Shown: positions 3,001 to 28,673 of the stretch, piece by piece
Layout of the letters: each line of letters begins with the position of its first letter
Position numbering within the stretch: the stretch's first letter is position 1
Source of the DNA: an uncultured Verrucomicrobiae bacterium
GTDB taxonomy: Bacteria > Verrucomicrobiota > Verrucomicrobiia > Limisphaerales > Palsa-1400
Length of the DNA stretch: 64,000 bases
Assembly (NCBI GenBank): GCA_963759415.1
Contig: CAVWZG010000003.1
Coordinates: 735,031-799,030, forward strand
Reading direction: 5' to 3'
Notes under the pieces: model-generated
Told to the model about the DNA's origin: nothing
Databases searched by the model: none
Seen by the model: the letters and a program-made list of their open reading frames with translations, nothing else
Translations under genes and position numbers: made by a program

Positions 3001-5805
3001 GGCGAGTGATGGGGTGCCTGCGGTTTGCACACTGAAACTCATTGTGCCCGATGACTTTCCGTCGGGGTTGTTCACCTTCACTGTCCAGGTGCCGGAATCG
3101 CTGCCGTTGTTCAATTGGTAGTTGATCTGGGTGCTGGAAACGAAGGTGAGCTTGGCGGCGGTGCTGTTGATGTTCGCCCCGGTCGGCGGATCGAAGGTGA
3201 GCGTGGCGCCGTTCTGAAAATTGTTGCCGTAAATGGTGAGCGTCTGGTCGCTGTTCAACGGCGGCATCGAGGTGGGTGACACGCTGGTGATCGAAGGCGC
3301 TAGCACCACGGTGGTGACCGTGAAGCTCATTGTGCCGGACGATTGTCCGTCGGGGTTGTTCACCTTCACCGTCCAGGTGCCGAAATCGCTGCCGTTGTTG
3401 ATTTGGTAGTTGATCTGAGTGCTGGAAACGAAGGTGAGCTTGGCGGCGGTGCTGTTGATGTTCGCCCCGGTCGGCGGATCGAAGGTGAGCGTGGCGCCGT
3501 TCTGAAAATTGTTGCCGTAAATGGTGAGCGTCTGGTCGCTGTTCAACGGCGGCATCGAGGTGGGTGACACGCTGGTGATCGAAGGCGCTAGCACCACGGT
3601 GGTGACCGTGAAGCTCATTGTGCCGGACGATTGTCCGTCGGGGTTGTTCACCTTCACTGTCCAGGTGCCGGAATCGCTGCCGTTGTTGATTTGGTAGCTG
3701 ATCTGGGTGCTGGAAACGAAGGTGAGCTTGGCGGCGGTGCTGTTGATGTTCGCCCCGGTCGGCGGATCGAAGGTGAGCGTGGCGCCGTTCTGAAAATTGT
3801 TGCCGTAAATGGTGAGCGTCTGGTCGCTGTTCAACGGCGGCATCGAGGTGGGTGACACGCTGGTGATCGAAGGCGCCGTTCCCGCGACGGTGAAGGATGC
3901 GGAGACTGCGTAGTCGTTGGCGGTAGTGGTTTGTGTGAGAACACTGGTGTTGTCGGCGATCACCCAGACGTAGTAGGTGCCCGGGGCAAGCGAGGCGGGA
4001 ACGGTGACCGTGGTGCTTTGGTTGATTGTCGCGCCAGCGGCAATCGTTCCGGTCGCCACGCCGCTGCCGACGTTGTTGGCCGAATTGCCGTAACTGGAAC
4101 CGGAGCTGGTGATGCGCACCTGGCTTTGGGACGAGGCGGCGGCTGACGAACCATTGTTGCGGATCTGCCAACTGACCGACAAGGAAGCTCCTGGCGCCAC
4201 GCTGCTGGAACCACGCGTCACGTTCAATGTCTCCACATCCACCGTCCCCGCGACGGTGAAGGATGCGGAGACTGCGTAGTCGTTGGCGGTGGTGGTTTGT
4301 GTGAGAACACTGGTGTTGTCGGCAACCACCCAGACATAGTAGGTGCCCGGGGCAAGCGAGGCGGGAACGGTGACCGTGGTGCTTTGGTTGATTGTCGCGC
4401 CAGCGGCAATCGTTCCGGTCGCCACGGCGCTGCCGACGTTGTTGGCCGAGTTGCCGTAACTGGAACCGGAACTGGTGATGCGCACCTGGCTTTGGGACGA
4501 GGCGGCGGCTGACGAACCATTGTTGCGGATCTGCCAACTGACCGACAAGGAAGCTCCTGGCGCCACGCTGCTGGAACCACGCGTCACGTTCAATGTCTCC
4601 ACATCCACCGTCCCCGCGACGGTGAAGGATGCGGAGACTGCGTAGTCGTTGGCGGTGGTGGTTTGTGTGAGAACACTGGTGTTGTCGGCAATCACCCAGA
4701 CGTAGTAGGTGCCCGGAGCAAGCGAGGCAGGAACGGTGACCGTGGTGCTTTGATTGATCGTCGCTCCAGCGGCAATCGTTCCGGTCGCCACGGCGCTGCC
4801 GACGTTGTTGGCCGAATTGCCGTAACTGGAACCGGAGCTGGTGATGCGCACCTGGCTTTGGGACGAGGCGGCGGCTGACGAACCATTGTTGCGGATCTGC
4901 CAACTGACCGACAAGGAAGCTCCTGGCGCCACGCTGCTGGAACCACGCGTCACGTTCAATGTCTCCACATCCACCGTCCCCGCGACGGTGAAGGATGCGG
5001 AGACTGCGTAGTCGTTGGCGGTAGTGGTTTGTGTGAGAACGCTGGTGTTGTCGGCGATCACCCAGACGTAGTAGGTGCCCGGGGCAAGCGAGGCGGGAAC
5101 GGTGACCGTGGTGCTTTGGTTGATTGTCGCGCCAGCGGCAATCGTTCCGGTCGCCACGCCGCTGCCGACGTTGTTGGCCGAATTGCCGTAACTGGAACCG
5201 GAGCTGGTGATGCGCACCTGGCTTTGGGACGAGGCGGCGGCTGACGAACCATTGTTGCGGATCTGCCAACTGACCGACAAGGAAGCGCCCGGAGCCACGG
5301 TGCTGGAACCACGCGTCACGTTCAAAGGCTCCACGTCCACCGTCCCCGCGCTCGCGACGGTGAAGGATGCGGAGACTGCGTAGTCGTTGGCGGTGGTGGT
5401 TTGTGTGAGAACACTGGTGTTGTCGGCAACCACCCAGACATAGTAGGTGCCCGGGGCAAGCGAGGCGGGAACGGTGACCGTGGTGCTTTGGTTGATTGTC
5501 GCGCCAGCGGCAATCGTTCCGGTCGCCACGGCGCTGCCGACGTTGTTGGCCGAGTTGCCGTAACTGGAACCGGAACTGGTGATGCGCACCTGGCTTTGGG
5601 ACGAGGCGGCGGCTGACGAACCATTGTTGCGGATCTGCCAACTGACCGACAAGGAAGCGCCCGGAGCCACGCTGCTGGAACCACGCGTCACGTTCAACGG
5701 CTGCACATCCACCGTGCCAAAGCTTTGGGCTGCACTGAGCCACAGAACGATTGAACTGAGGAGAACAATCTGGATGCTACCTTTTTTTCCTCGAATAATA
5801 TTCAT
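1..5805 (-). CDS. Giant secreted RHS/YD-repeat protein, 3' end cut by window edge (signal peptide, 5 CARDB-like modules, 3 IPT/TIG-like modules, PKD domain, RHS/YD repeats)
   Basis: Own translation of the minus strand, in the frame whose codon first bases fall on coordinates divisible by 3. ATG at 5805-5803 gives MNIIRGKKGSIQIVLLSSIVLWLSAAQSFG (signal-like), then TVDVQPLNVTRGSSSVAPGASLSVSWQIRNNGS...PGTYYVWVVADN (CARDB-like). 2640-2470 reads YLWTFGDGGTGTGSYPSHTY (PKD motif). 2340-2281 reads YTYNHVDLRLPGRGLPFEFQ (RHS core entry). 60-1 reads RLKTVTDWQYNTTTYSYDAN (YD repeat). The frame is the same at all check points. The ORF is absent from the supplied track, apparently because it has no stop inside the window. 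Confidence 0.85.
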   Translation of the reverse strand, partial: MNIIRGKKGSIQIVLLSSIVLWLSAAQSFGTVDVQPLNVTRGSSSVAPGASLSVSWQIRNNGSSAAASSQSQVRITSSGSSYGNSANNVGSAVATGTIAAGATINQSTTVTVPASLAPGTYYVWVVADNTSVLTQTTTANDYAVSASFTVASAGTVDVEPLNVTRGSSTVAPGASLSVSWQIRNNGSSAAASSQSQVRITSSGSSYGNSANNVGSGVATGTIAAGATINQSTTVTVPASLAPGTYYVWVIADNTSVLTQTTTANDYAVSASFTVAGTVDVETLNVTRGSSSVAPGASLSVSWQIRNNGSSAAASSQSQVRITSSGSSYGNSANNVGSAVATGTIAAGATINQSTTVTVPASLAPGTYYVWVIADNTSVLTQTTTANDYAVSASFTVAGTVDVETLNVTRGSSSVAPGASLSVSWQIRNNGSSAAASSQSQVRITSSGSSYGNSANNVGSAVATGTIAAGATINQSTTVTVPASLAPGTYYVWVVADNTSVLTQTTTANDYAVSASFTVAGTVDVETLNVTRGSSSVAPGASLSVSWQIRNNGSSAAASSQSQVRITSSGSSYGNSANNVGSGVATGTIAAGATINQSTTVTVPASLAPGTYYVWVIADNTSVLTQTTTANDYAVSASFTVAGTAPSITSVSPTSMPPLNSDQTLTIYGNNFQNGATLTFDPPTGANINSTAAKLTFVSSTQISYQINNGSDSGTWTVKVNNPDGQSSGTMSFTVTTVVLAPSITSVSPTSMPPLNSDQTLTIYGNNFQNGATLTFDPPTGANINSTAAKLTFVSSTQINYQINNGSDFGTWTVKVNNPDGQSSGTMSFTVTTVVLAPSITSVSPTSMPPLNSDQTLTIYGNNFQNGATLTFDPPTGANINSTAAKLTFVSSTQINYQLNNGSDSGTWTVKVNNPDGKSSGTMSFSVQTAGTPSLAVTSPTSTTTWTAGTSQTISWTVNGTPNPSVSYFALNYSLNGGTAWQPYGYFASGSAVSGSWSIPTTANSSQAIVQIIAVNSSGLAMFWNQSAAFTISSQTTGTPTSVPNCNNRSPSPASAVTITFNGAASTGSSTSCGIASYLWTFGDGGTGTGSYPSHTYYPSPGSVTTYNVYLQVTDSCGKIAANTQPLIITITGQALGNSNPAQPTSKDPVNLATGNYTYNHVDLRLPGRGLPFEFQRFYNSKATASTGLPLGYGWTDSYNIGLAVSQTNNAVVITFGDGHAEMYATNGAGGYFSQPGIYNVLATSGGNYTLTTKEQQKYNFNSSGQLTSIADKNNNAVSLGYTGIALTTITNTVGRVISFAYNANNCLTNITDPLGRTVRFAYDANTNLVSVTDTRGGLTQFGYDQYHQVTNAIDPRGNTFVSMQYDNLQRVVSSQKDALQGATTFTYDFVSGITTVVDAMTNVSYYHYDPQLRVKEIDDNLGNKQFFQYDTNNNRIQVIDKNGKSTAYAYDANGNVISKTDPFAQPTTIAYDALNNPTNRLDAQNGLTIFKYDPKGNLTNTFNSIGKTNTYQYDAFGEPVIVQDANGNITTNAYDSFGNLILTRDAVGGTNAFAYDAASRKLKSVDALGHTNLFIYDSADNLTASVNALGKTNSFIYDGNNNRVSATDFRGYTTTSIYDVKDRLIITRDALGNSVTNDYDALDRKIRVWDAMGGVTRFGYDANGNLLAVTNAVNAVTRYSYDPNGNRTNTVDALGNSITNVFDSLNRLVSTQDALGRTTASVYDALGRRLQGIDPLNRTNFFAYDRMGRLTNFTDTAGGTVVNAYDNVGNRLFTTDPNGHTTTNVFDALNRLSQTTDPVGGVTQLGYDAVGSLVSRKDPNGKTTTYLYDANNRRTQITYPTGTPVTFGYDNNGNRTSMTDALGTTTYLYDALNRLTSVTDCYGKTVSYAYDKNGNRTSITYPGGKTVTYAYDAINRLKTVTDWQYNTTTYSYDAN
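3030..3876. repeat. Three tandem ~288-bp coding modules = IPT/TIG-like domains (APSITSVSPTSMPPLNSDQTLTIYGNNF...)
   Basis: The string gtcggggttgttcaccttcac.gtccaggtgccg.aatcgctgccgttgtt recurs at 3061, 3349 and 3637 (period 288). Shadow ORFs at 3343 and 3631 are near-identical. Confidence 0.85.
3877..5715. repeat. Five tandem near-identical ~366-bp coding modules (one of 372 bp) = CARDB-like domains of the RHS protein
   Basis: The track shows the same shadow ORF (MCENTGVVG.HPD.VGARGKRGGNGDRG...) restarting at 3931, 4297, 4663, 5029 and 5401. Spacings are 366, 366, 366 and 372 bp. The nucleotide strings are almost identical by eye. Confidence 0.9.
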
Positions 5806-7807: not shown

Positions 7808-8185
7808 TCAGTCTTTCTGGAGGCGGGAGGGCGGGGTGTGCAGGCGGCATCGTCCGGCGCGGTGACGGGGGCAAATGGGCGGTAACACGGCGGTTTCTGA
7901 CAGGGTGAGCGCGACCAGCTGTTCCACAGTCCGCAACACAAGCTCGGTGCGGCTGGTGACGGTGAGTTTCTTAAAAAGCCGATTCAGATGCATGTGGACG
8001 GTGTGGGGCGAAATCTTGAATCGTTCGGCAATGTCCACCTCATGTTTATTGTCAAAGACGCCCTGGACGATCTGGATCTCGCGCTTGGTGATGCCGAGCG
8101 CCTTGGCGATCTCGGACCATGCGTGGTCGCTGAGGATGGCGGCTCCGAGCAATTTCCGCTGTTGAGGTAGTCGGGGTCGCGGCAT
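7808..8185 (-). CDS. LuxR/GerE-type HTH transcriptional regulator
   Basis: ITKREIQIVQGVFDNKHEVDIAERFKISPHTVHMHLNRLFKKLTVTSRTELV matches the GerE-type HTH pattern. Confidence 0.75.
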   Translation of the reverse strand: MPRPRLPQQRKLLGAAILSDHAWSEIAKALGITKREIQIVQGVFDNKHEVDIAERFKISPHTVHMHLNRLFKKLTVTSRTELVLRTVEQLVALTLSETAVLPPICPRHRAGRCRLHTPPSRLQKD

Positions 8186-8212
8186 GGAATTAGGCCAGGT
8201 TGTGCGGGTTGC

Positions 8213-8536
8213 TCATTCGTGTTGCCGGGCGCGCCAGCGGGTGAGTTTGAGGATGCGGCCGAGGCGGATGGCGTAGAGGGCTTTGGCGCCACGGCCCTGG
8301 CGGGGGACCGAGACAGAGCCGGACAGGATGAAGCAGATGTCATTGTCGGAATTCCCTTGTGTGAGAATCTCGCGGTTGGCAGGGAATTCCTGGCGTGTGG
8401 CCGCGGTAGCCAGCGCTTGGGCGACTCGTTGGTCCCCGGCGACTATCTCCTGGCCGCGCAGGGCTTCGATGAAGCGCACCCTTCCGGCACGGCCGGTGAA
8501 GCGCTGTATTAGACCTGGGCTGCTCTTGGTTGCCAT
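8213..8536 (-). CDS. Short cyclic-nucleotide-binding-like domain protein (partial domain)
   Basis: FPANREILTQGNSDNDICFILSGSVSV resembles the beta-barrel start of cNMP-binding domains, and the domain appears incomplete. ATG at 8536 lies 2 nt after the DUF262 gene stop. Confidence 0.4.
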   Translation of the reverse strand: MATKSSPGLIQRFTGRAGRVRFIEALRGQEIVAGDQRVAQALATAATRQEFPANREILTQGNSDNDICFILSGSVSVPRQGRGAKALYAIRLGRILKLTRWRARQHE

Positions 8537-8538
8537 AC

Positions 8539-10392
8539 TCAACTGACGTCAAGGGGCGTGATCTTCCAGACCTCTTTCGCCAGCTCGATTAGCATCGTCT
8601 GGCGTTGGGTAATGGTTTCGCCGGTCCAATCGTCAAACGACGCCAGCTTTTCGTTGATTCGGCTGATGGAGCTGTTGTTGCCGACGGGCGTCAGGGCGGC
8701 GATGCTGCTGGTGAGGTAGTGTTTGCACTTCGCGTATTCCACCTTCTTGGCTGCGAAAAAGTCGTTGCTAGCGACAATGTTGATCGGCTTTTCCAGCAAC
8801 GTCAGATTGCCGAGCCTGATTTTGCAATCTTGATAGGTGGCTTTGGTGTTCTTGGCTGCGAAATCATCAAGGAGGGCCTGCTTTGGATTGTCCGGGAGGA
8901 TGTGCTCGACCTGGAGCCCGGCGTAGTCGGCTAGTGAGCCGGGCACCTTCAGCCCTTTATAGGCCATGTCCACGTGCTGGGTCAACTTGGCCAGCAGGTA
9001 GTGGGTGCGGTACTTCTGCATCGAGTAGAGCGTGTAGCGCTTGAGGGCGTCCGATAGTTCGACATCCTTGGCGGCCATGTTCTTCTGGAAATACTCGGCG
9101 ATGAACGCGTTGAGCCTTTCCTTCTGCTTTGTGGGGTCAACCTCCGCGCCAATGGCCCGCAGGTCGTCGGCCCACAAGGAGAAATTCCGCTCCAAGTCCT
9201 TGGTCGGCGTCTTGGTGAAGATGTAGTAGAAAAGGAAGCTCTCCAACTGGCCGATGAAATGGTCGAACAGGGGTTTTGGAAAGGTGCTCGCGGCGAGGAG
9301 CAGCACGTAATGCAAACTGAAGGCCCCGCCGGTCAGGCGAGCCAAGCTGAGCATGGCCAGATTGGTCTGGCCGTCGTTACCGCGCCCGCCAGCATAGGCC
9401 AGGTAGTGCTCCACGTTGCGGGTGATTTTGCGGACAAACTCAAACGGCTTTTCCGTGTAGCCGCAGAGCTTGGCGTTCTCCTTTTTGGTCAGCCAATCGT
9501 AGATCTCATCCTCGCGGACGACGGCGTCCTTGCGCTCTTCATCGCCCCGTTCGACCTCGATCTTGTAGTTGGCCATCAGGAAATAGCGGAGGAAGCGCAA
9601 CGGCTTTTCCTTGGCCTGCTCCAGCGGCTTGGTGATCTTCTTCCATTCGTCCTTTAGCCGGGTGAACTCGGCGGTGCGGACGTGGGTGAACAGCAGGTTC
9701 TTCAACAGGTCCATCGGGTTCAAGCCGACGCCGCGCTCGTTGATGGTCTCAAATATTTTAAGCGCGCTGCTGACATCCGTCGAGATTTGGATGAAAACGA
9801 CGTTGTTGGCCAGGTAACCCCAGTACTTTCTCAGCGTTCCTTTGGCCTGGTGTGTGTCGCGTAGATGCCGGTACAGCAGGTCGTAGGCGTTCAGGAGGTT
9901 TTCCAGGGACCCAAAACTGGCGATGCCGGCGGCTTGGATGCCGGCGCGGGTCGCCTGCGGGTCGGCGTCCAGCGCGACGATTTTGGCCATGACCTCTCCA
10001 GCGTTCTCGTAGCGGGGCTCAAGCTTGAGATTGGTCCTTGTCTCGCCGTCGGTAGATGTGTAGCTGGTGGAAATCAGACCGGTGATGGTCTGGTGCTGCG
10101 GTTCGTTGCGGAAAAAATGTTGCAGCGCGCACAGGAGGAGGAAAAACGTGGTCAGTCGTTGCTGGCCGTCGATCACCTCAAAATGGTTCTTCTGGTCGGT
10201 GGGGGACACCAACACGGTGCCGATGAAGTATTCTCGACTAGCCCCTCCGTCCAGTTGCTCGTTGATGTCGTCGAGCAACTGCTGCACTTCCTTGTCCGTC
10301 CAGACGAATTCGCGCTGGTAGTCGGGCACAATGTAGAAGCACTCGCGGAACGCTTCCTCGATGCTGTATCTGTAGTTTTCGATTCTGGCCAT
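8539..10392 (-). CDS. DUF262 + DUF1524 protein (GmrSD/BrxU-like type IV restriction enzyme family)
   Basis: N-terminal YIVPDYQREFVW and VIDGQQRLTTFFLL (DUF262/ParB-like DGQQR motif). C-terminal VEHILPDNP...LGNLTLLEKPIN (DUF1524 His-Me finger pattern). Confidence 0.85.
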   Translation of the reverse strand: MARIENYRYSIEEAFRECFYIVPDYQREFVWTDKEVQQLLDDINEQLDGGASREYFIGTVLVSPTDQKNHFEVIDGQQRLTTFFLLLCALQHFFRNEPQHQTITGLISTSYTSTDGETRTNLKLEPRYENAGEVMAKIVALDADPQATRAGIQAAGIASFGSLENLLNAYDLLYRHLRDTHQAKGTLRKYWGYLANNVVFIQISTDVSSALKIFETINERGVGLNPMDLLKNLLFTHVRTAEFTRLKDEWKKITKPLEQAKEKPLRFLRYFLMANYKIEVERGDEERKDAVVREDEIYDWLTKKENAKLCGYTEKPFEFVRKITRNVEHYLAYAGGRGNDGQTNLAMLSLARLTGGAFSLHYVLLLAASTFPKPLFDHFIGQLESFLFYYIFTKTPTKDLERNFSLWADDLRAIGAEVDPTKQKERLNAFIAEYFQKNMAAKDVELSDALKRYTLYSMQKYRTHYLLAKLTQHVDMAYKGLKVPGSLADYAGLQVEHILPDNPKQALLDDFAAKNTKATYQDCKIRLGNLTLLEKPINIVASNDFFAAKKVEYAKCKHYLTSSIAALTPVGNNSSISRINEKLASFDDWTGETITQRQTMLIELAKEVWKITPLDVS

Positions 10393-10429
10393 GGTTTTCT
10401 TTTTTTATTGGCTTAGATGGACGTGCCGC

Positions 10430-11125
10430 TCAGTGGCGCCTCCTGCGCTGCGCGGCCGGAGGTGCGGTCACCGCCTCCTCGAAGGATTTGTTCGCTAACT
10501 GCTCGATCAGGCGAACGAAGGACGGGCAGCACCCAAGTCGTGTAAAACGTGTTGTGCTGGCAGCCCTGAAAATGGCGGGCGTGTCGGTGAACTTTTGGAA
10601 TTCGACGTTGTGGCTGCGGAAGAGCGCATCAAGAACGTCCTCGGGGTAGGGCTCTGACTCTGGGCGTCGGGTCCGTCGGGTCCGCACCCGGACGCCGCCC
10701 CGCACCTTATCTTCGAGGACCGAACGCAAGGCTGCTTCGTCCGCCAGGCACCACGCTTCCAACTCTTGCGGGATGCAAAGGAGCACGATGTTTTCTCTGC
10801 ATACCGACCCATGTTGGGTCGCCTTGAGGCTTTTCCAGATACTGACCGAGTCGATCACACAGTCGCCGTCTCGGTAGCGTTTGGTTCTAGCTTGCTGCCT
10901 CCAAGCGACTTCGGCGGGGTGCCAGTCCCACATAATGAAGACCCGGTCGCAGCCCTGGTCGAAGAGGCGGGTGGCGTCACTCGCAGCGTTCTTAAGGAGA
11001 AGGCCTTTGTTGCCCTGCGGAAGGACTATGAATTGATCGCGAGGACAGAAACACTGCATGAGCGACCTGACCGCCTGGTGCTCCGGTCCCTGCAGGGTGG
11101 ATTCAACGATAAAGCCGATTTTCAT
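10430..11125 (-). CDS. DUF4276-like protein (putative TOPRIM/OLD-like nuclease partner of the upstream ATPase)
   Basis: N-terminal KIGFIVES..GPEH acidic motif and IPQELEAWCLADEAAL, which I recall as the DUF4276 signature. ATGA start/stop overlap with the ATPase gene. Confidence 0.65.
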   Translation of the reverse strand: MKIGFIVESTLQGPEHQAVRSLMQCFCPRDQFIVLPQGNKGLLLKNAASDATRLFDQGCDRVFIMWDWHPAEVAWRQQARTKRYRDGDCVIDSVSIWKSLKATQHGSVCRENIVLLCIPQELEAWCLADEAALRSVLEDKVRGGVRVRTRRTRRPESEPYPEDVLDALFRSHNVEFQKFTDTPAIFRAASTTRFTRLGCCPSFVRLIEQLANKSFEEAVTAPPAAQRRRRH

Positions 11126-12297
11126 TTCTGCGTCCCCAGAAGGCCCTTCTTGTACATGTCTCCCAAACTAAATGACTTGGCCCAATTTCGCAGCTCTTTC
11201 GAGTCGCCTGGACGATGAAAGGCGGGCTCGCCTGAAGCGTTACGCTCCACCGTTATGACGTGCTCCAAGAGGACCTGGTCCAGGAGATAGGGAGAATGGG
11301 TCGTGGCGATGATTTGGCTTCGGCCAGACTTCACCGCGCGACGTATCTCGTCCAGGAGCAGCCCGATCGTTCGCGGATCCAAGCCGTTCTCAATTTCCTC
11401 GATCACTATTAGGGGGGATGGAGTCGGATGCCGCAGGACTGCCAGCAGGGCCGCGGCGCGCAGTGTGCCGCTCGATAGCAGCCAGCCTGGAACCTTGAAA
11501 TCCTTCTCCACCATGGACAGGTGGACGGTGCGCTCCAGTTCGGAGGTGACCTCTGGTTGCAGATCGCGCGCGTACGGCAATACGAATTTCAGTGCCTCAA
11601 CAATGCCGGCAAAGGCTGCCTCGTCGAGATTTCGCAGGTGGTGCAGATACTCTCCGATACCCGAACCGTCTTCTTCCAAAACGGTGGCCGTCTTGGCCAA
11701 CCGTTGCGGCCTCGGCAAACCCATTTGGCCTGGGGAGAGGGAGAGGAACTGCCATCTGACGATTACCTTCGTGATGCCATCGGCCAGGAGTGATACGTCC
11801 GCGGGCAAGGGCGTCTGGAAGGGTAGATTGTCCTCGCCCCATGTTACCTTCCCCTGCTTACGGATAAGATGCGCCTCATTGGCCACGTTGACCTCCTCGG
11901 AATCCAGCCGCAGGTCGTTAAAGCCGCGATTGTCCCGAACTTCTGTTTTGGACTCGAAGGCGTGCCCTCTTACTTCTCCAGTCAGCTCAAAGCTCATGGG
12001 TTGTTCCCAGTCGAGGTCGTCGCCCTCCTTCGGTTTGAGCTGTTCGCTTTTGTGAAAAACGTGCTGGAAACCCTTCCAGCGCCGCATCGCTTGATCGAGG
12101 CCCACCGTAGCGATGTCGTTCAGTGTTTGTAACCCTTCAACCAGGCTGCTTTTTCCACTTCCGTTGTTGCCGACGAAGACAGTGAACGGCGTGAATTGAA
12201 CAACACCGCTGTCATGGATCGCCTTGAAGTTGCGGAGCCTGAAAGAGTTGATGAACCATTTTGGCTGTCCGTCTTTAGGTGCGGGGCGGGATTTCAT
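11122..12297 (-). CDS. ABC-type AAA ATPase (AAA_21/AAA_15-like)
   Basis: Walker A FVGNNGSGKSSLVEGL. Walker B/D-loop LIVIEEIENGLDP. ATTHSP switch. ATGA overlap with the methyltransferase stop. Confidence 0.85.
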   Translation of the reverse strand: MKSRPAPKDGQPKWFINSFRLRNFKAIHDSGVVQFTPFTVFVGNNGSGKSSLVEGLQTLNDIATVGLDQAMRRWKGFQHVFHKSEQLKPKEGDDLDWEQPMSFELTGEVRGHAFESKTEVRDNRGFNDLRLDSEEVNVANEAHLIRKQGKVTWGEDNLPFQTPLPADVSLLADGITKVIVRWQFLSLSPGQMGLPRPQRLAKTATVLEEDGSGIGEYLHHLRNLDEAAFAGIVEALKFVLPYARDLQPEVTSELERTVHLSMVEKDFKVPGWLLSSGTLRAAALLAVLRHPTPSPLIVIEEIENGLDPRTIGLLLDEIRRAVKSGRSQIIATTHSPYLLDQVLLEHVITVERNASGEPAFHRPGDSKELRNWAKSFSLGDMYKKGLLGTQK

Positions 12298-15200
12298 TTG
12301 ATGAGTCCTAGTTGAACGTCACGAAAGGCATTTCGAGTAGCCACTTTTACGGGTTCGGGAACAAGGGGAAAAGTATTAAGGATGTGCGTGAACTCGGACT
12401 CGGTGAGGCCGTAAAGGTGGGCGATGAGGCCGTCTAGCTCGGCCCGGAGGCGGGCGCGGGCGGCGGCGTCCGTGACGCCCTTTACGGCGGCAGGCAGTTT
12501 GAGCGCGGTGCTGACTTCCTTGGCCAGCGCGTCAAATTCCGGCGCGGTGCAAGTCAACTGCGTCGCCCGCTGGACGATCGGGCGAAACGCGGCGTCCGTC
12601 GCCGCCAGGCGGGGAACCGAAAGCTGGTAGAGGAAAAAGCTGTTTAGGTTTGTCGTCATCTTCGCGCGAAGCGAGTAATCAACGACGAAGCTGTTCAGCA
12701 ATGCCGTTAGAAGCACGAGTTCAGCGGCGGAGAATCGGTGTTGGGCGTAGCGTGCTTTGTCGTGATGAAATGGAAAGTGGACTGCCAGCGAATTGCCGGT
12801 CACCGAGCCTGGCGGAATAATTGCCACGATAAGTGTCCGCTCGTTGGTGTTGGAAGCGATTTTCCGCAAGGCTAGGCGAAACGTTTCGTAATCATTACGC
12901 ATGTCCTTCGGAACGGCGTTAAGTCCTTCGGTGCGCTTAACCCTTTTCTCGAGGAACGATTCGCGGATGTCCCGTTCGGTAATCCAGTATTGCGGCTTTG
13001 CATACTGGTGGTCGAACTGCCAAATCATGCCTCCTTCGTAGAGGAGCGTCTTTGTCGGCTTCGTCTTGAAAAGATGCGAAGCGCGATTCATGTGAAGCTC
13101 CTCGCCGTAGATTTCGAGCCCCCAACCCTTCTCGCTATCGCTGAGAAACGGAAACTTGAGGAGCTTCTCGGCGATCTCGATGTCCATCTGTGTTTTGAAC
13201 TCGGGGACTGACAATGAATCGGGTGAGAGCTTCTGAACCAAGGCAAGCGGGATGTGGAGCGAGTGGCTGTTTGGAAATGCATTCAACTCGGCCACGTCGT
13301 GCCTCATGAACGCGGCGGGAAAATCGCTGGTCTGCCCGCCTTTCTCAAAGGTTAGGACGACGAACTTGAAGCTGCGGTGAACGCCCTCGAAGACTTCGTT
13401 GCGATTCTCAAAGCAGAAGAGCCCTTCGACGGCAGTTTTGGCGAACAGCATTTGACGGAGTTGTTTTGCGCCCAAGTCGGTGTAGACGCCGCTTGGAATC
13501 ACGATGCCGCACTGTCCGCCGTTCTTGAGCAAATTGAACGACTGCTCAAGGAACACTTTGTAGAGATTCACGTCGGCGCCGACTTTTCTGCCATTCACCT
13601 CGGACGTTTGATTCGGGAACTGTCTGGCCTTACGGAAATAGACGATCTGGTGCGGGAACTGGCTCTTGTATTCGAGCCAGGCGTCGCAAACGTCGGTGTC
13701 CCGCAGCAACTTCGCTTGCTCTTCCTCGAAATCATGGATGGTCATCTTCTTCTTGGTGACCAGGTCAGAGTATCTGGAGCAGAATTCTTTTGCCTGCGGT
13801 TTGAATATCTCCCAGGGCGGATTCGTGATGATGCCGTCGAAGCCCCCTTCGGCGAGGACTTTGTCAAACTCGTAGGCCCAGTGAAGAGGAATGAGCGCCT
13901 GAATATCGGATATCTTGAGGGCGCGTTTCTCAGACTCGCCCTCCTCACCGGCTGCTTTAGCCCAGGTTGCTTGTTCGAATTGGATGCCGAGGGCTTTAAA
14001 TTCGTCCAGGAGCATCTGATTCAGGCGGTCGTAGGATTCCCGGCGGACGTTCTCAATGTCGCTGCGGAGTTGGATGAGCGCCACTTCCTGCGTGACCGCA
14101 TCGCGGTCGTGACGCTCGAAAGCGTGTTTTCGATAGAGCTCAATGGACTTGTTCTTATGTTCCAAGATGGCGGCGAATCGCGCGGCGTGTTGTTGGGAGA
14201 CGAACGCGGTGGCTTTTTCCTCCTTGGTCGGCGCGGTTTTGGTCTCGACCGTGAAACCGAGGTCGCTGCTGTGTTGAAGTGTCAGCCTTTCCTGAGCGCC
14301 GCCGCTCTTCTGCTGCCCGGCATCGAACTTAGCCGGGTCAATGCGGAGCAAGCCGATGAGCGAGTTGCCGGCGAGGATATTGAAGTCAATGTTCGGCAGC
14401 GGCTCAAGCTGGTCTTCGGTTTGTGCGGAGGCGACGAGCGCGAGGAAAAGGCGCAGGCGGGCGATTTCACTGCCTTCCTCCATGATGTCCACGCCGAAGA
14501 GATTGTTCGTGATAATTTGCTTCTTGATGAAGTAGAGGACAGACGGGTGCTCGGCCTGGGTCTGCTTGTGCCACTTCGCGAGTTCCACGTCGTTCAGGAA
14601 TTGAATCTTGCCGATGACGGCGGAGTAAATGGCGATGAGCACCTTCATGGCGGCGACAAGGAACGCGCCGGAGCCGCACGCGGGATCGAGCAGGCGCAGC
14701 GATGGCAGGATCTCGAACAGGAGCGCCCTGCAAAGGTTGGCGTCCAGGTTTAGCAGGAGGTCGGAGATGGTGGCGAAGCGGCGGTTGAGCGCCTTATTCA
14801 CACGGTTGAGGACGAGCTTGTAGATGGTGCGCTCGCACAGGTAGCCGGTCATTTCGTGCCGGGTGTAGTAGGCGCCGAATTCCTTTTGGTTGATGTACTT
14901 CTCGAAGATGTAGCCGAGGACATCGGGATTGATCTCATGGTCGTCGCCCCCGGGCGTGTCGTTGAGATTCCAAGAGTAGCGACTGAACAGCGCGAAAATG
15001 TTTTCGAACGCGACATCGGGGATTTTGATGCGCTGCTTGTCGGGGAAGCCATGGTTGAGCTCGACGCGGTGCGGCAGGAACAGGCCGCCGTTCAGGTAGC
15101 GGATTTTACCGAGCAGTGCGCGGGCAGCCGGGCTGCGGGCGAGCTCCGGCTGGGCGAAGCCTTCGAAGAACAGCGATTTGAGGAAGCCAGAGTAAAATGT

Positions 15201-15911
15201 ATCCGCGCCGCGCTTTTTAGATGCGGCGAGTTTGTTGGTGAGGTAATCGCGATCCGCGCCGTCGAGGAAGCCTTTGCGCTGGAGGAACCAGATGAACATG
15301 AGGCGGTTCATTAGCACGGACGCATACCAGCGGCGCTGGTGGTCGTCGTTGATGCCCTGGATGTGTTCGACGAACGCGAGGCGCTGGGTGTCAAACTCGC
15401 CGTAGAACTTTTTGGTGACGCGTTCGACATCGAGCGCGGCTTTGAGGCGACCGGCGACTTCGGTGACGGGGATGTTGCCCTCGGCGTCGAGTTCGCTGAT
15501 GTCCACGACCATCGCGGCGAGCTTGCTCAAGAACAGGTCGCCGGGCTGGCCTTTGACGTAGAGGTGATCGCGGGCATGGGTCTTGCCGGCCTCGCGTTTG
15601 ACCCAGTACCAGAGGCTTTGGGTGCGGGCGGCGTCGAGGAAGATGAGGAGGTTTTCAACGTGCTCCTCGGCTACGTGCTTTTGGATGGCGGCGCGGGCCT
15701 TTGCGTCCGGGATGCCGTTGCCGGTGGTGACTTCAAAGACAACCACACCGGCCAACTGCGCAATGGGTGTCCGGGTGTATGGCGTTTCTTTGACCTGGGC
15801 CTTGATCGGGTTGCGCGACTTGGGGTTCGACCAGCCGAGTTCGTCAATGAACAGGCGCGCAAACTCGAATTTTTGGAGACGGTCGCGAGTGGTGGCGATG
15901 TTGAGCGGCAT
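12294..15911 (-). CDS. Large (1205 aa) N6-adenine DNA methyltransferase, Eco57I/PglX/DrmMI-like, with N- and C-terminal extra domains
   Basis: Motif I LLDPACGSGAFLVAAM. Motif IV GIITNPPWEIFKP. LAGNSLIGL. N-terminal FARLFIDELGWSNP. No obvious nuclease motif seen. Confidence 0.85.
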   Translation of the reverse strand: MPLNIATTRDRLQKFEFARLFIDELGWSNPKSRNPIKAQVKETPYTRTPIAQLAGVVVFEVTTGNGIPDAKARAAIQKHVAEEHVENLLIFLDAARTQSLWYWVKREAGKTHARDHLYVKGQPGDLFLSKLAAMVVDISELDAEGNIPVTEVAGRLKAALDVERVTKKFYGEFDTQRLAFVEHIQGINDDHQRRWYASVLMNRLMFIWFLQRKGFLDGADRDYLTNKLAASKKRGADTFYSGFLKSLFFEGFAQPELARSPAARALLGKIRYLNGGLFLPHRVELNHGFPDKQRIKIPDVAFENIFALFSRYSWNLNDTPGGDDHEINPDVLGYIFEKYINQKEFGAYYTRHEMTGYLCERTIYKLVLNRVNKALNRRFATISDLLLNLDANLCRALLFEILPSLRLLDPACGSGAFLVAAMKVLIAIYSAVIGKIQFLNDVELAKWHKQTQAEHPSVLYFIKKQIITNNLFGVDIMEEGSEIARLRLFLALVASAQTEDQLEPLPNIDFNILAGNSLIGLLRIDPAKFDAGQQKSGGAQERLTLQHSSDLGFTVETKTAPTKEEKATAFVSQQHAARFAAILEHKNKSIELYRKHAFERHDRDAVTQEVALIQLRSDIENVRRESYDRLNQMLLDEFKALGIQFEQATWAKAAGEEGESEKRALKISDIQALIPLHWAYEFDKVLAEGGFDGIITNPPWEIFKPQAKEFCSRYSDLVTKKKMTIHDFEEEQAKLLRDTDVCDAWLEYKSQFPHQIVYFRKARQFPNQTSEVNGRKVGADVNLYKVFLEQSFNLLKNGGQCGIVIPSGVYTDLGAKQLRQMLFAKTAVEGLFCFENRNEVFEGVHRSFKFVVLTFEKGGQTSDFPAAFMRHDVAELNAFPNSHSLHIPLALVQKLSPDSLSVPEFKTQMDIEIAEKLLKFPFLSDSEKGWGLEIYGEELHMNRASHLFKTKPTKTLLYEGGMIWQFDHQYAKPQYWITERDIRESFLEKRVKRTEGLNAVPKDMRNDYETFRLALRKIASNTNERTLIVAIIPPGSVTGNSLAVHFPFHHDKARYAQHRFSAAELVLLTALLNSFVVDYSLRAKMTTNLNSFFLYQLSVPRLAATDAAFRPIVQRATQLTCTAPEFDALAKEVSTALKLPAAVKGVTDAAARARLRAELDGLIAHLYGLTESEFTHILNTFPLVPEPVKVATRNAFRDVQLGLIK

Positions 15912-15913
15912 GG

Positions 15914-18900
15914 TCAGGGATTTCTAATTCCGAGGGAACAGATGATGCGCGGCTCGCGGGTTTCGGTGTCGTCCTCGTGGACGCACAGACGGTCTTCTTC
16001 GTGGAGCGCGAGAACCAGGTCAGCCAGCTTGTTGTTGCTGACGCCTGTGCGCAGCTCGCGGGCCAGCGTTTCGCGCGCCGATTCCTGCAATGGGCGGGCG
16101 AAGATAGCCTCGATGGCCCGAGTCAGGAGTTTGGTGTCGAACAGCGTGTCGCGCATGGACTCAGCATAGTCTTTCAAGTGCTCGTACACGCGGCGGCGGG
16201 CACTGGTGGGACGGCCAAGCGCGCCGCCTTCGGTGCGTTGTTCGGCGGCGACCAACTCGACGCCGACGCGGACCAGCGCGTGATGCTTTTCGAGCCGGGG
16301 CAAGCCGGGCGTTTCCGGATCACAAGCGGCGGCACGAAGAATCTCGTGCTGCGATTCCGTGACCGTGCGGCCTTCCTCGTCCACCCATGCCAGCGCGTCA
16401 TTGTCGTCGGCGGTGCGAACATAGACCATGACGCCCGTGGCGGCGGTTTTGCCCGGCGCGACCGGCACGGCGGAGAGCGGCTTGGTGGCGAAAATGACGT
16501 TGGGCAGGTCGGGCACGGTCTTTTTAAGCGCCGGGTTGAGGTCGGTGGCGTTCTTCCAAATCTGGTAAGCTTGCGAGGCGAGGTCCACTTCGTTGTCGTC
16601 GGGGTCGTCAAGCACGCCGGATTTTTCGGTGAAGAGATCAAGAATGGTGGGGTCGTGCTTTTCGTCTTCGAAAAAGGTTTCGTCCGTGCCGACAACCTCG
16701 GCGTTTTCGTGCAACCGTTGGCGGACGCGCGAGCGCAACCGGATGAGGCGCTCGACACCGTCGGCAGGCAGGAAGGAGTAGCAGAGGATTTCCTCAGAGC
16801 GCTGGCCGATACGGTCCACGCGGCCAGCGCGCTGGATGAGGCGGATGATGGCCCAGGGCAGGTCGTAGTTTACGACGATGGCGGCGTCCTGGAGATTCTG
16901 GCCTTCGCTCAGAACATCGGTGGCGACGAGAAGGCGTAATTCTTCGGTAGCAGAAATTTTCTCGCGGCAGCGGTTGCTGTTGGGGCTGAACCGCCGCGCA
17001 TACTCGGACGGGTCGTCATTGTCACCAGTTACGGCGGCAAGTTCTTTCACGCCGCGTTTCCGCAACTCCGCGTTGAGGTATTCCACGGTATCTGCGAACT
17101 GGCTAAAGATCAGGATCTTGTCCTTCGGATGCTTTCTGGTAATGAGTTTGTGAAGCTCGGCGAGTTTGGTGTCCGTGTCGGGCTGCCAATGGCCGGAAAG
17201 CGTGAGGATCGAGAAAAGGCGGTCAATATCGTGTTGCAGGTGCTTGGCAAGGTCCGCGACGAACAAGCCCGGACGGAGCCAATCGAAGCGGTTGCTGTAA
17301 TGGCGGGTCAGGAAGTCGTAGCCGGCGACGGCTTGCTTCCGAAAATCGTCGAGGGATGTGCAACCCGCGAGGTTCAGTGTGTGGTTGGTGTGGTCTGTGC
17401 CGCCGTCGAAAAAATCGCCGGGCGTAGTCGTGGTGTCGCCGTCCGCGTCGTCGCCGCGAGTGTCGAAGAGCGCGGCGTCCTGGGTGCCAATGGGCAGCGG
17501 CTGCCCGGACTCGATGGCGTGGAGGTAAAGGTAGTTGCGGAGGATGTGGCGCTGGATGGATTGGAGGAAAGCAGAGCCGCTGCTTTCCAGCCGCTTGAAA
17601 AGGTTGGTGCGACAGAAGCCGATCAGCCGTTTGCCGGCGCGGGACAGGTTTTGGAGGACTTCGGCTTCCTCCTGGGTCGGCGGGTGGTCGAGCGTGGGAT
17701 GCACGTAGTTTGCCAGCCCGTAGCGGGGTAGATGCAACACACGGATGGTGTCCACCACCTTGTCAGAGTAGAGGCGGGCGTATTGGTCGTCCGGGTCTTT
17801 GTCGCGGATGCGAAAGGCGAGCGTGCGCGGTTTGCGTTTGGGGAAATAGAATTTGGTGCCGTCCTCCAAGAGGAGGAAGGCGCGGCCCTGCGCGGGCTTG
17901 TGTCCGTTGCAAGACGGGCACTGAGTTTGCCGCGCGAGGATGGGACTGCGGCACTGGGGGCAATCGGTGGTCGCGTAGTTTTTTTGAATGAACGAGCGCG
18001 TGCGGCGAACCATGAACAGGCGCATGAGTTCGCGCCAGTCGTCGGCGTGTTCGCTTTTCTCGAACGCGGCGAGACAATTCACCGGGCACTGATGTTTCTT
18101 GGTGAATTCCTCGACGCGGTTGTCGCAATCGCGGCGGATGTATTCCTCGGGCCGCAAGCCCAAAGCCTGCTCGGGGTCCAGGAAGAGGCGGATCTGATTC
18201 GCCAGGTCGAGGTAGGCTTTGTTATAGGGCGTGGCTGACAGTAGAATGCAGCGGGAGTCGTTGCGCTGGATGTAGTCGCGGACGACAGCGTAGGTCTTGC
18301 CCTCGCGATTGCGGAGATTGTGGCTTTCGTCGAGAAGCACAATGCGATAGCGGCGCAAATCGGGAAGCTGGTTGCGCGCCTGCGACAGCGGCACGATTTT
18401 GGCCAGCAAGCGAAAGCGGGCGGCGTGGTCCTCCCACATGCCGACAAGGTTCTTGGGGCAGAGGATGAGGGTTTCCAGCGAGTGCGGCGGGTCCTGGAAC
18501 ACGCGAGAAAGAGCGGTCGCCATGAGGGTTTTGCCGAGGCCGACCACGTCGCCGATGATGACACCGCCGCGTTTCTCCAAGTGGCGGGCGGCGATCTTCA
18601 CGGCGGCGGACTGGAAGTCGAAAAGCGTGTCGCGAAAATCTGAGGGGATGGAAAACTCGGACAGGCCGGCCCGGGCTTCCTCGGCCAGGTGGTAGGCCAT
18701 CTTCACGTATATCAGATATGGCGCAATGATGTCCGGGCGCGCCCAGCTTTCTGCGATGACCTGGATCAGTTCCTGCGTGATGTCGAGGCACCAGCGGTCG
18801 GCCCAACGGTCTTCGAACCACTTGGCCAATTTCGCGGTGGCGTCGTGGTCGAGGACGTCCACGTTCAATTCGCCCTGCTGGGAGAGGCCGGCGAAGGTGA

Positions 18901-19387
18901 GGTTGCTGCTGCCGACGTAGCCGACGCGCGGGTTGTTGAAATCGTTGCGGAAGCAAAGGTAGAGCTTGGCATGAAGGGTGTGGCGGAGAAAAAGTTTCAC
19001 GGCCAGTTTGCCGGACTCCATTTGGGCGGCGAGGCGGCGCAATCCAGTTTCGTCAGCGTCGTTCGGGGCGCCCATCGCGAGCTGATTCCGGAATTCCTCG
19101 GCGAGCTTGCGCTTGAGGCGGATGGCGGTCTGGTTGTCCATCGGCTCGTCGGCGCGGACCAGGCTGAGGCACTGGCGGAGTTCGTCGGCTGGAAGGCGTT
19201 GCATGCCGACGAGGAGGCGGCACTGGTGGTCCGGGCCGCCGGACCATTGGTCGATGCGCGAGTCGATAGACTTCCAGCCGCGCAGATTGAAGTAGCCAAC
19301 GCAAAAGTCCGCGCGCTCGGAGACGAGGAGGGTCTGCTCAAGGGCTGGGAGCAGGGTGGTGTCAATGTTGTCGAAGATGCGGGGCAT
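15914..19387 (-). CDS. PLD(HKD) nuclease - SNF2 family helicase fusion protein
   Basis: Single HKD motif LHAKLYLCF...[14 protein letters not shown] near the N-terminus. Helicase motif [12 protein letters not shown], motif [13 protein letters not shown], motif [20 protein letters not shown]...CPSCNGH zinc-ribbon insert. Confidence 0.9.
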
Positions 19388-19399
19388 CTGGTTAGATCC

Positions 19400-19585
19400 T
19401 TATGTATCCTTCTGACCGGCTGTGCCCTTCTTTACCCATGTGTCAACCTCTGACGCCAGGAATTTCCAGAGGCGGCCGACTTTGTGACCGGGCATTTTCT
19501 TGCGCTCGATCCATTTGTAGATCGTGTCGCGGTTGACGCCCAAGTGGGCGGCGATTTCTTCGACTGACAACCAGCGCTCTTGCAT
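19400..19585 (-). CDS. Excisionase/MerR-type helix-turn-helix DNA-binding protein (possible operon controller)
   Basis: LSVEEIAAHLGVNRDTIYKWIERKKMPGHKVGRLWKF is a typical HTH_17/excisionase-family pattern. The stop lies 12 nt before the helicase ATG. Confidence 0.75.
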   Translation of the reverse strand: MQERWLSVEEIAAHLGVNRDTIYKWIERKKMPGHKVGRLWKFLASEVDTWVKKGTAGQKDT

Positions 19586-20157
19586 AAAGGTGTTTCAGGT
19601 TTATCCGCGTCGGAGTCATTTCCGGTGCGGCGAGCCTTCGGGCAGCATTGTAGGAACTCTGTCCGATAGCGCCAGAGAAAAACGATGAAAAGCCGATTGA
19701 GACTGGTTCTTAATTGGCTGAGGCGGAGGGGGGCGTCTACGCGTGATCGCAAAGTGCGAGGGGGTGGACAACGTGCCCCCTCGCGTCCTTTTCCCCCTGT
19801 GGCCCCACCCGCCCCGGCCTTGGGGCCGGGGAGAGCCAGGGCGAAGACCTCTTGGGTTCGTGGAAGGGGTCGAGCATTGGGGATGGGTGGGCCTGGGTCG
19901 CGAGTAGAAGAAATCCCCGACTGGCGCCGGGGAGGTCTGACTTATGCGGCCACCTGTTCGGCGGTGCCCATGCGGGAGTTACAGGTAATTCTCGGACGAT
20001 CCCGGAGCGTTGACAAAGGGCAAGTCAATCGGCCAAATTCATCGTAATGGACACGATTTCGGGCTCGAATTTAGAGGATGTTATTTCTGCAATTTTGCTT
20101 GCACTCAGAGCGAAAAAGAGCGAAAATCGTTTTTAGTAAATCGCACGTTCAATTACA

Positions 20158-20221
20158 GATGAACACAGATAAAGACTCTGGCCGGTCGTCTGCTCCTCAT
20201 CTGTGTCGATCTGTGTTCATC
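20158..20221. repeat. REP-like inverted repeat (13-bp perfect arms)
   Basis: gatgaacacagat (20158-20170) and atctgtgttcatc (20209-20221) are exact reverse complements. An extra atctgtgt copy sits inside. Confidence 0.7.
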
Positions 20222-28013: not shown

Positions 28014-28145
28014 AATTCGTTAATATTTAATTGGAGGCAGACCACAACGCATTGGAAACTCGCGCCGCCATTTCGTTGATGCCACCGGCCATGATACTGA
28101 TGTTCGACGGTGACGACGACAGGATTAGTCATTAATTCTCAGGGC

Positions 28146-28669: not shown

Positions 28670-28673
28670 CCTT

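Follow-up and report, generated by a model that had tools for sequence, protein, structure and literature searches.

Two-gene units that join an ABC ATPase to a small Toprim-like partner recur in bacterial defence systems, and a unit of this kind is the subject of this study. It occupies the minus strand at positions 10430 to 12297 of a 64,000-nucleotide stretch of DNA (hereafter, the window) from an uncultured Verrucomicrobiae bacterium (GenBank assembly GCA_963759415.1, contig CAVWZG010000003.1, positions 735,031 to 799,030) and consists of an ATPase gene followed by a gene for a DUF4276 protein. Among the described systems, HEC-01 of Payne et al. is an ABC ATPase with a TOPRIM-like partner that was found through its embedding in Hma operons (bioRxiv 10.1101/2024.01.29.577857), and in E. 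coli B an HEC-01 from a cold seep gave protection from at least one of the phages T4, T5 and T7 (PMC12881386). MADS defence needs both mad3 and mad4, and mad5 can be deleted only when mad2 or mad3 is deleted as well (bioRxiv 10.1101/2023.03.30.534895). Mad4 is a DUF4276 protein; DUF4276 and RloB were identified as new Toprim members in the paper on Menshen, whose NsnC is another named DUF4276 case (PMC12065111). The ABC ATPase plus TOPRIM systems listed in the PARIS paper include MADS3-4 and AbiL; PARIS itself senses Ocr and cuts tRNA (PMC11464382). A survey from 2026 found Toprim-linked OLD-ABC modules in or beside BREX and BREX-related loci of 1242 taxa and read them as backup effectors (PMC12839542).

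A preliminary description of the window pair drew a parallel with PARIS, AbiL and OLD, which agrees with the grouping in the PARIS paper. It also took DUF4276 to be the effector of no characterised system and considered the placement in a restriction-modification (RM)-like operon unusual. The former statement is contradicted by HEC-01 and by Mad3/Mad4 of MADS, the latter by the discovery of HEC-01 through such embedding and by the OLD-ABC plus Toprim modules of the 1242 BREX and BREX-related taxa. Novelty of the pair as a kind is thereby lost, since it is already catalogued under named systems (HEC-01; Mad3/Mad4).

Judged from sequence comparison, the window pair belongs to the ABC ATPase plus DUF4276 kind represented by HEC-01 and Mad3-Mad4, within which it forms a divergent sub-lineage. 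We consider it rather likely that the pair is an autonomous sensor–nuclease module serving as an accessory second layer, a PARIS-like guard, of an RM-like system, because it is dispensable for the core of that system, is swapped with other cargo, evolves faster than the core and occurs alone once.

Like HEC-01, the window pair consists of two overlapping genes, for an ABC ATPase and a DUF4276 protein, in or at the end of a helicase/methylase restriction-like operon. HEC-01 models match it with 5e-46 (A) and 2e-7 (B), whereas true pairs reach 1e-140 to 1e-199 and 1e-71 to 1e-96, respectively. The host core is also different, being a PLD–SNF2 protein with an Eco57I/MmeI-type methyltransferase in the window and Hma (SNF2–DUF3883, DUF1156 and DUF499) in the case of HEC-01; the window lineage is nearly host-specific, whereas HEC-01 is common outside such loci too. 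As regards the models themselves, PADLOC PDLC04144, labelled HEC-01B, gives full-length matches to ATPases (1e-31 to 1e-101) and PDLC04143, labelled HEC-01A, gives matches to DUF4276 partners, so that the labels of the two models look swapped.

Likeness to MADS is seen in the ATPase, which matches mad3 with 6.7e-27, and in a helix-turn-helix (HTH) protein of the window operon, which matches mad1 and scores just under the cutoff of NF047737 (Table 1). In contrast to MADS, the window operon does not contain Mad5-8 (kinase, specificity subunit and others), and its methyltransferase has 1205 aa and is type IIG-like, whereas Mad2 has about 650 aa. Membership in MADS was rejected because Mad6, Mad7 and Mad8, all obligatory in the MacSyFinder model of its authors, are absent from the operon and its neighbours. 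The two proteins were likewise rejected as Mad3/Mad4 equivalogs: the ATPase scores 107.9 bits against the NCBIfam MAD3 model (NF047739; cutoff 420), and the partner has no NCBIfam match. PARIS (AriA with the DUF4435 protein AriB) and OLD (P2 Old, GajA) also combine an OLD-like ABC ATPase with a nuclease of the Toprim superfamily, and in PARIS, as in the window, ATPase and nuclease are split into two genes. The window partner is a DUF4276 protein, unlike the DUF4435 protein of PARIS or the OLD-Toprim; it has no match to DUF4435, AriB, Old or GajA in Pfam and PADLOC, and membership in PARIS was rejected on the lack of a DUF4435/AriB match. RloA/RloB cassettes, in which an AAA_21 ATPase and RloB lie in type I RM loci, share with the window an ATPase with a small Toprim-like partner in an RM setting, but RloB belongs to PF13707 and the partner to PF14103, with no match seen at the level of sequence and a borderline one in structure.

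Distribution of the pair and its host core

On the minus strand of the window, a tight operon runs from the HTH gene through genes for a helicase, a methyltransferase, the ATPase and the DUF4276 partner, followed after 37 nt by a GmrSD gene. A scan for relatives of the methyltransferase, using one genome per GTDB species, returned 247 relatives, of which the best 80 loci were analysed. The hosts are Verrucomicrobiota (the closest, with 64-73% identity), many Nostocales, Planctomycetota, Acidobacteriota, Nitrospirota, Kiritimatiellia and Gammaproteobacteria. Since the helicase lies directly 5' of the methyltransferase in nearly all 80 loci, the two genes are regarded as a conserved core.

Sixty-four loci had at least 2 kb of sequence downstream and could be evaluated for presence of the pair. 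Sixteen carry it after the core, one has the ATPase only, in another the ATPase is fragmented, and the remaining 46 are without both genes; the pair is thus dispensable for the core. In a neighbour-joining tree of the methyltransferase, the pair-bearing loci are scattered over all non-cyanobacterial branches, the deepest included, and the Nostocales clade is without the pair except for its basal member. Pairwise divergences of methyltransferase and ATPase are correlated (rho 0.52, Mantel p 0.0005); the coefficients are 0.81 for ATPase and partner and 0.72 for methyltransferase and helicase. Mean identity is 0.48 for the ATPase and 0.39 for the DUF4276 protein, compared with 0.60 for the methyltransferase and 0.63 for the helicase. 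This faster divergence of the pair than of the core would be in keeping with sensor-like evolution.

The contexts of the sub-lineage were collected from all contigs of judgeable length in which the partner (25-47% identity) or the ATPase (about 43-50%) has a relative. The same array, namely a PLD–SNF2 helicase (~1125-1195 aa), an Eco57I/MmeI-type methyltransferase (~1150-1205 aa), the ATPase and the DUF4276 protein, was found in 15 of the 16 sampled contexts. It is present in metagenome loci (L001, L004, a 5.1-kb JGI contig, L005/L006, L007, L008, L091, L092, L093 and L099) and on plasmids of cultured cyanobacteria (pANACY.05 of Anabaena cylindrica PCC 7122, NC_020056, genes ANACY_RS30255-30240, and plasmid4 of Calothrix sp. 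NIES-4101). The sole exception is L100 (9001-10760, JGI 3300082212), where a pair of the window type, with an ATPase identity of 50%, lies by itself amid housekeeping genes, flanked by a sulfatase gene and a DUF3386 gene; no remnant of the helicase or the methyltransferase was found within 9 kb. The idea that the pair is always integral, held after the first 12 contexts, was weakened by the 46 of 64 loci without the pair and by this stand-alone case.

Signs of decay were seen in two loci. In L099 (1822-9004) the helicase and methyltransferase genes are broken into several frames and the pair is intact, with a long-read sequencing error possible; in L037 (13372-14578) the ATPase gene is split into three open reading frames (ORFs). 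P0009, a 395-aa protein from ENA contigs of at most 1.7 kb, joins the methyltransferase N-terminus, a C-terminal piece of the ATPase and the full DUF4276 protein; it has arisen either by deletion within the array or by misassembly.

The position after the methyltransferase also accepts other genes. In L027 it is filled by a bona fide HEC-01 pair (HEC-01A 4e-199, HEC-01B 6e-96), and the sister locus L014 has a pair of the window type instead. Other contents of this slot in pair-less loci are AAA_21 with RhuM, AAA_15/DUF3696 with a protein without assigned function, RhuM alone, and a deoxyribosyltransferase-like protein with a Schlafen/NB-ARC STAND NTPase. The junction between helicase and methyltransferase, which is tight in the window, is split elsewhere (L012-L089), in Nostocales and others, by 0.4-4.3 kb of cargo comprising YhcG/DUF1016, Uma2, Fic, KilA-N, ORF6N, DUF3800, IS605-type TnpB and DUF4351 genes. 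This junction is a second embedding hotspot of the same core, besides its 3' end. The preliminary description saw the pair as wedged between a methyltransferase and a type IV enzyme; the pair rather continues, as is usual for it, a helicase–methyltransferase core at the 3' end, and the GmrSD gene farther on is a variable add-on.

Of the more distant, true HEC-01 pairs, one stands by itself on Acinetobacter pTR11_2 and another is a moron of a Rahnella prophage, between antiterminator and lysis genes; both settings speak for autonomy. On Aeromonas veronii pHX3 (L095, NZ_CP040718.1, 83-92 kb) a true HEC-01 pair lies between the genes for Mod, a 627-aa site-specific methyltransferase, and a Res-like DEAD/DEAH helicase of 1019 aa. 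The order methyltransferase, ATPase, DUF4276 is common to this locus, to MADS (mad2-mad3-mad4) and to the window.

The core resembles MANTIS/Gao_RL and Type-2 BREX-related systems in having a helicase–nuclease with N-terminal PLD/HKD and SF2/SNF2 domains beside an N6-adenine methyltransferase, and in those systems, as in the window, accessory nuclease modules are often embedded. MtsD of MANTIS has an N-terminal PLD and an SF2 motor, and its dimer makes a single PLD active site. The window methyltransferase, unlike that of MANTIS, is of Eco57I/MmeI type with large flanking domains of its own, and these systems were rejected as hosts since the operon and its flanks contain neither DUF499 (MtsA) nor DUF3780 (MtsB). 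Hma is composed of the SNF2 protein HmaA with a C-terminal DUF3883/NOV_C nuclease, the DUF1156 methylase HmaB and the DUF499 ATPase HmaC (PMC11232893). It was also rejected, as the window helicase carries a PLD at its N-terminus and lacks DUF3883, the methyltransferase matches Eco57I/MmeI_Mtase and DUF499 is missing; HmaA matches the window helicase (1.4e-22) in the helicase C-terminal domain only. No paper was found on the two-gene core of PLD–SNF2 helicase and methyltransferase as such, and the widespread core that hosts the pair is apparently undescribed.

Conserved features of the ATPase and the partner

The preliminary description reported a two-gene cassette with ATGA overlaps on both sides of the ATPase gene; reading of the sequence confirmed this and showed two intact genes on the minus strand. 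The motifs it had quoted (GNNGSGKS, LIVIEEIENGLDP and ATTHSP in the ATPase, IVES..GPEH and QELEAWCLAD in the partner) are all present and coincide with invariant or nearly invariant columns. Its identification of an ABC-type ATPase is borne out by a Pfam AAA_21 match of E 1.8e-26 (94 bits, cutoff 27), together with matches to AAA_15 (3.9e-17) and SMC_N. Among PADLOC models, HEC-01A (4.9e-46, over the full length) ranks ahead of PDC-M07A, AriA (1.2e-28), mad3, AbiLi, GajA and PtuA. All 28 ATPases compared keep Walker A, S275/G277/T278/R280, E301/E303/N304/D307 and H334. Sequence and profile searches against PDB gave generic SMC/ABC matches only; the AlphaFold2 model (predicted local distance difference test score, pLDDT, 85) has as its top PDB match in Foldseek the OLD nuclease of Thermus scotoductus (6p74, E 1.5e-11), followed by PtuA (retron/Septu), Rad50 and Gabija GajA (8sm3). 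In motifs and fold, the protein is an ABC-type ATPase of the OLD-like, AAA_21-AAA_15 group.

The partner had been called DUF4276-like, which also stands. It reaches 27.8 bits (E 3.7e-6) against Pfam DUF4276 (PF14103), just below the gathering score of 30.2; a profile search yielded 207 relatives, and membership is secure because all 83 relatives that were aligned match PF14103, the best with 9.3e-15. A homologue in Anabaena is labelled 'DUF4276 family protein' in RefSeq. When 1.84 billion cluster representatives were searched exhaustively with a hidden Markov model (HMM), 163 clusters matched at E<=1e-30; with the limits E<=1e-10 and E<=1e-3 the numbers rose to 448 and 1625. The PADLOC HEC-01B model covers residues 110-211 only (2e-7, partial), and NCBIfam gives no match; alignment of the partner profile with bona fide HEC-01B by hhalign has a probability of 95.5% over the C-terminal half, which contains the QELEAWCLAD region. 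Residues E8, K40, W66 and D67 are kept in 29 of 29 partners, and E121, E123 and D129 in 27-28 of 29.

The overlap of 4 nt (NTGA) between ATPase and partner genes is kept in 10 of the 11 related loci checked, which suggests translational coupling. Between methyltransferase and ATPase genes, a 4-nt overlap was found in five of ten related loci, the rest having an overlap of 1 nt or a gap of 16-29 nt.

Proposed mechanism and alternative readings

In the mechanism that we propose, the large N6-adenine methyltransferase would mark self DNA, and unmarked DNA would be restricted by the PLD/HKD–SNF2 helicase–nuclease, a scheme taken from MtsD of MANTIS/Gao_RL and from type III/ISP logic. The pair would be a self-contained anti-phage sensor–effector that travels with this RM-like core operon as an accessory at the 3' end and is made up of the OLD-like ABC ATPase and a separate DUF4276 protein, predicted to be a metal-dependent nuclease of the Toprim superfamily. 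The two genes are presumably coupled in translation, and their products would probably form one complex. By analogy with AriA, which senses Ocr, the fast-evolving ATPase may sense a phage product or the failure of restriction and may then license the partner nuclease to cut nucleic acid, whereby infection would be aborted. The GmrSD protein encoded downstream would add a third layer, directed against modified phage DNA.

Assignment of the partner as a Toprim nuclease is a published one that the structural model reproduces weakly. In the AlphaFold2 model (pLDDT 92, predicted template modelling score 0.88), strands at residues 2-7, 31-36, 61-67 and 113-118 alternate with helices, with E8 after beta1, D67 ending beta3 and E121/E123/D129 after beta4. 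The model therefore shows the Toprim order beta1-alpha-beta2-alpha-beta3-alpha-beta4 with a glutamic acid after beta1, the order being read along the sequence and not within the sheet. Several results weigh against the sensor–nuclease reading at this point. Asp67 stands at the position of the Toprim DxD motif and the second aspartic acid is not conserved, so that the canonical motif is down to one residue; the invariant E121, E123 and D129 after beta4 may compensate for the missing one. The preliminary description had proposed comparison of an AlphaFold model with TOPRIM/OLD structures. The ATPase model matches the OLD nuclease 6p74, but for the partner model no OLD or Toprim chain is among the top 50 PDB matches in Foldseek, which are generic alpha/beta folds (the best being riboflavin synthase 2b98, an unrelated fold, E 5.7e-3). 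The best structural match anywhere is an RloB-like phage protein in BFVD, at a borderline level (E 1.4e-3, template modelling score 0.46-0.49). Alignment of the partner profile with P2 Old (from AF063097) by hhalign gave a probability of 0.13%, the template being a single sequence and the result uninformative. Sequence and profile searches of PDB found no relative of the partner and no solved DUF4276 structure. We know of no DUF4276 protein with a known trigger or substrate.

Other observations that count against an accessory role are those that would make the pair integral to restriction, as in MADS. The pair would then form one unit with the methyltransferase, be recruited to unmethylated sites, and be needed for, or control, cleavage alongside the PLD–SNF2 motor nuclease. 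In 15 of 16 sampled contexts the sub-lineage has the same host core, to which it is thus almost confined. In about half of the loci the start of the pair overlaps the stop codon of the methyltransferase gene (by ATGA in the window and five other loci), the divergence of the pair tracks that of the methyltransferase, and the deepest branches of the methyltransferase tree bear the pair, as would be expected if four genes were the ancestral state and losses came later. Host exclusivity, stop codon overlap, correlated divergence and deep branching fit an integral, co-evolving component equally well or better. The recurrence of the gene order in MADS and on Aeromonas pHX3 points the same way, as do the requirement of MADS defence itself for mad3 and mad4 and the conditional deletion of mad5. 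We nevertheless hold this explanation to be possible but rather unlikely, since the core lacks the pair in most evaluable loci, nearly all Nostocales included, and has a PLD nuclease of its own; the slot accepts unrelated cargo and a different HEC-01 lineage; the pair stands alone in L100; and in L099 it is intact despite a frameshifted helicase and methyltransferase, a sequencing error being possible there. It is also conceivable, though quite unlikely in our judgement, that the array of helicase, methyltransferase, ATPase and DUF4276 protein is a distinct, unnamed restriction-like system in which the pair serves as a second nuclease, integral since ancestral times and coupled to the methyltransferase, and that pair-less forms such as those of Nostocales are secondary reductions. 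The methyltransferase or the partner of this array is carried by several hundred lineages, and, if there is such a four-gene system, its methyltransferase–ATPase–DUF4276 triad would be shared with MADS and with the type III-like system on Aeromonas pHX3.

A role that is not primarily anti-phage, either as an addiction or toxin-antitoxin (TA)-like module or as a DNA-repair/recombination ATPase and its accessory protein, with the genes merely hitch-hiking in a variable region, appears very improbable. The Pfam name of AAA_21 ('putative AbiEii toxin, Type IV TA system'), the likeness of the ATPase to Rad50/SMC/RecF heads and TA-like genes in nearby cargo slots (MqsA-like in L008; Fic) can be cited for it, and no protection of E. 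coli was obtained with the HEC-01 representative that Payne et al. tested (bioRxiv 10.1101/2024.01.29.577857), a result that also counts against the accessory defence reading. On the other hand, the closest profiles of the ATPase are all from defence ATPases, one HEC-01 does protect against phage and MADS defence depends on mad3 and mad4. Placement is consistently in restriction-like operons, on plasmids or in a prophage moron position, and there are neither long coiled coils nor partners of Mre11 or RecN type. The view taken in the preliminary description, of an uncharacterised two-gene system with a novel DUF4276 effector oddly inserted between unrelated RM enzymes, is likewise very improbable: the weak, partial HEC-01B match, the lack of an NCBIfam name and of a solved DUF4276 structure in sequence searches would agree with it, but the kind is named and published (HEC-01, Mad3/Mad4, Menshen NsnC), with DUF4276 assigned to Toprim, and the placement is the rule for this lineage.

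As an accessory module of a named class, the window pair adds little as a single instance, nesting in restriction-like operons being already known. The sub-lineage is barely detected by the present PADLOC HEC-01B models, and annotation pipelines probably under-call it. In the core of PLD–SNF2 helicase and large type IIG-like methyltransferase there are two places where the defence cargo varies, a situation much like that in Hma. Loci in which the pair is present, absent, swapped, alone or on plasmids of cultured strains provide natural contrasts that bear on autonomy versus methyltransferase dependence of ATPase–Toprim modules, a question shared with MADS.

Operon layout and surroundings

The features of the operon and examples of junction cargo in related loci are collected in Table 1.

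Table 1. Features of the window operon and of related loci, with coordinates, strand and supporting evidence.
Feature	Coordinates	Strand	Evidence
Mad1-like excisionase-family HTH, 61 aa	19400..19585	-	HTH_17 3.8e-16; PADLOC mad1 9.5e-14; NF047737 78.6 bits (cutoff 80)
Core helicase–nuclease, 1157 aa, N-terminal PLD/HKD + SNF2	15914..19387	-	PLDc_2, SNF2-rel_dom, Helicase_C (Pfam)
Core methyltransferase, 1205 aa, N6-adenine gamma-class, Eco57I/MmeI_Mtase	12294..15911	-	Pfam; motifs LDPACGSG, NPPW
ATGA overlap, methyltransferase stop/ATPase start	12294..12297	-	'atcaaATGAaatcc' read at 12297-12294
OLD-like ABC ATPase, HEC-01A/Mad3-like, 391 aa	11122..12297	-	Pfam AAA_21/AAA_15/SMC_N
Walker A GNNGSGKS, ATPase residues 43-50	12148..12171	-	Invariant in 28/28 and 64/64 relatives
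ABC signature-like LSSGTLR, ATPase residues 274-280	11458..11478	-	S275, G277, T278, R280 invariant
Walker B/D-loop LIVIEEIENGLDP, ATPase residues 296-308	11374..11412	-	E301, E303, N304, D307 invariant 28/28
H-loop ATTHSP, ATPase residues 331-336	11290..11307	-	T332, T333, H334, S335, P336 invariant
ATGA overlap, ATPase stop/partner start	11122..11125	-	'cagaaATGAaaatc' read at 11125-11122
DUF4276 protein, HEC-01B/Mad4-like, divergent sub-lineage, 231 aa	10430..11125	-	PF14103
IVES..GPEH, partner residues 6-16, N-terminal	11078..11110	-	Glu8 directly after strand beta1; invariant 29/29, 83/83
WDWHP, partner	10916..10930	-	W66, D67, P70 invariant; position 69 = R/Y/H/C/K
QELEAWCLAD, partner residues 120-129 (E121, E123, W125, D129), after strand beta4	10739..10768	-	Invariant or nearly
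GmrSD-type type IV nuclease (DUF262+DUF1524), 617 aa	8539..10392	-	GmrSD_N 9.7e-40, GmrSD_C 1.1e-18
Junction cargo examples	L042:8107-9153; L058:8860-9993; L074:6739-7308; L074:7769-9004

The HTH gene lies 12 nt 5' of the helicase gene, and its product is probably the regulator of the operon. Among the 80 related genome loci, this HTH was seen before the helicase in L031 and L036 only. The helicase matches the PADLOC 'HKD+Snf2' model with 3.2e-49 and the NCBIfam PLD anti-phage model with 137 bits (cutoff 1100); sequence and profile searches of PDB gave generic SF2 matches only. The methyltransferase matches the PADLOC type IIG model with 5.7e-117, and no PDB relative was found at E<1e-3 in sequence and profile searches. 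Its N-terminal region of ~380 aa is highly conserved, with the motifs RTQSLWYW and YVKGQPGD, and DUF7814 is weakly matched in relatives.

The methyltransferase and type IV enzyme that the preliminary description had placed on the two sides of the pair were recovered as the 1205-aa Eco57I/MmeI-type protein upstream and the 617-aa GmrSD protein downstream. The latter matches the PADLOC models Orf5 (1e-84) and HEC-06 (7.6e-69) and is of type IV, with the DGQQR motif of DUF262 and an HNH-like DUF1524; 'IDGQQRLTT' and 'VEHILPDN' are found in its translation. A GmrSD gene follows the pair in the window and L092 only, and a single-sequence HMM search (E<=1e-5) found no relative of the window protein in the 80 related genome loci. 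The gene is variable cargo outside the conserved array.

Promoter and terminator scans of positions 8000-20200 gave counts at the level of chance (4 against 2.5 expected and 12 against 15.5 expected), which speak neither for nor against internal promoters. A tRNA scan of the window found none, leaving no integration-site clue, and inspection of the flanks of the defence operon found neither an integrase nor a tRNA near it. The operon is flanked by genes for polysaccharide lyases of family 8, ComEC, a glucose/sorbosone dehydrogenase and LuxR-type regulators. The lyase genes are two tandem paralogues on the minus strand (23406-25643 and 25662-28013), and the ComEC-type competence gene, which also flanks the operon, is on the plus strand (28110-31091). 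Two adjoining tandem arrays were found in the window, one of 288 bp in 2.9 copies (3033-3876, 97% identity) and the other of 366 bp in 5.0 copies (3876-5715, 96%); both lie inside very long ORFs, probably of a gene for a repetitive protein of surface or adhesin type.

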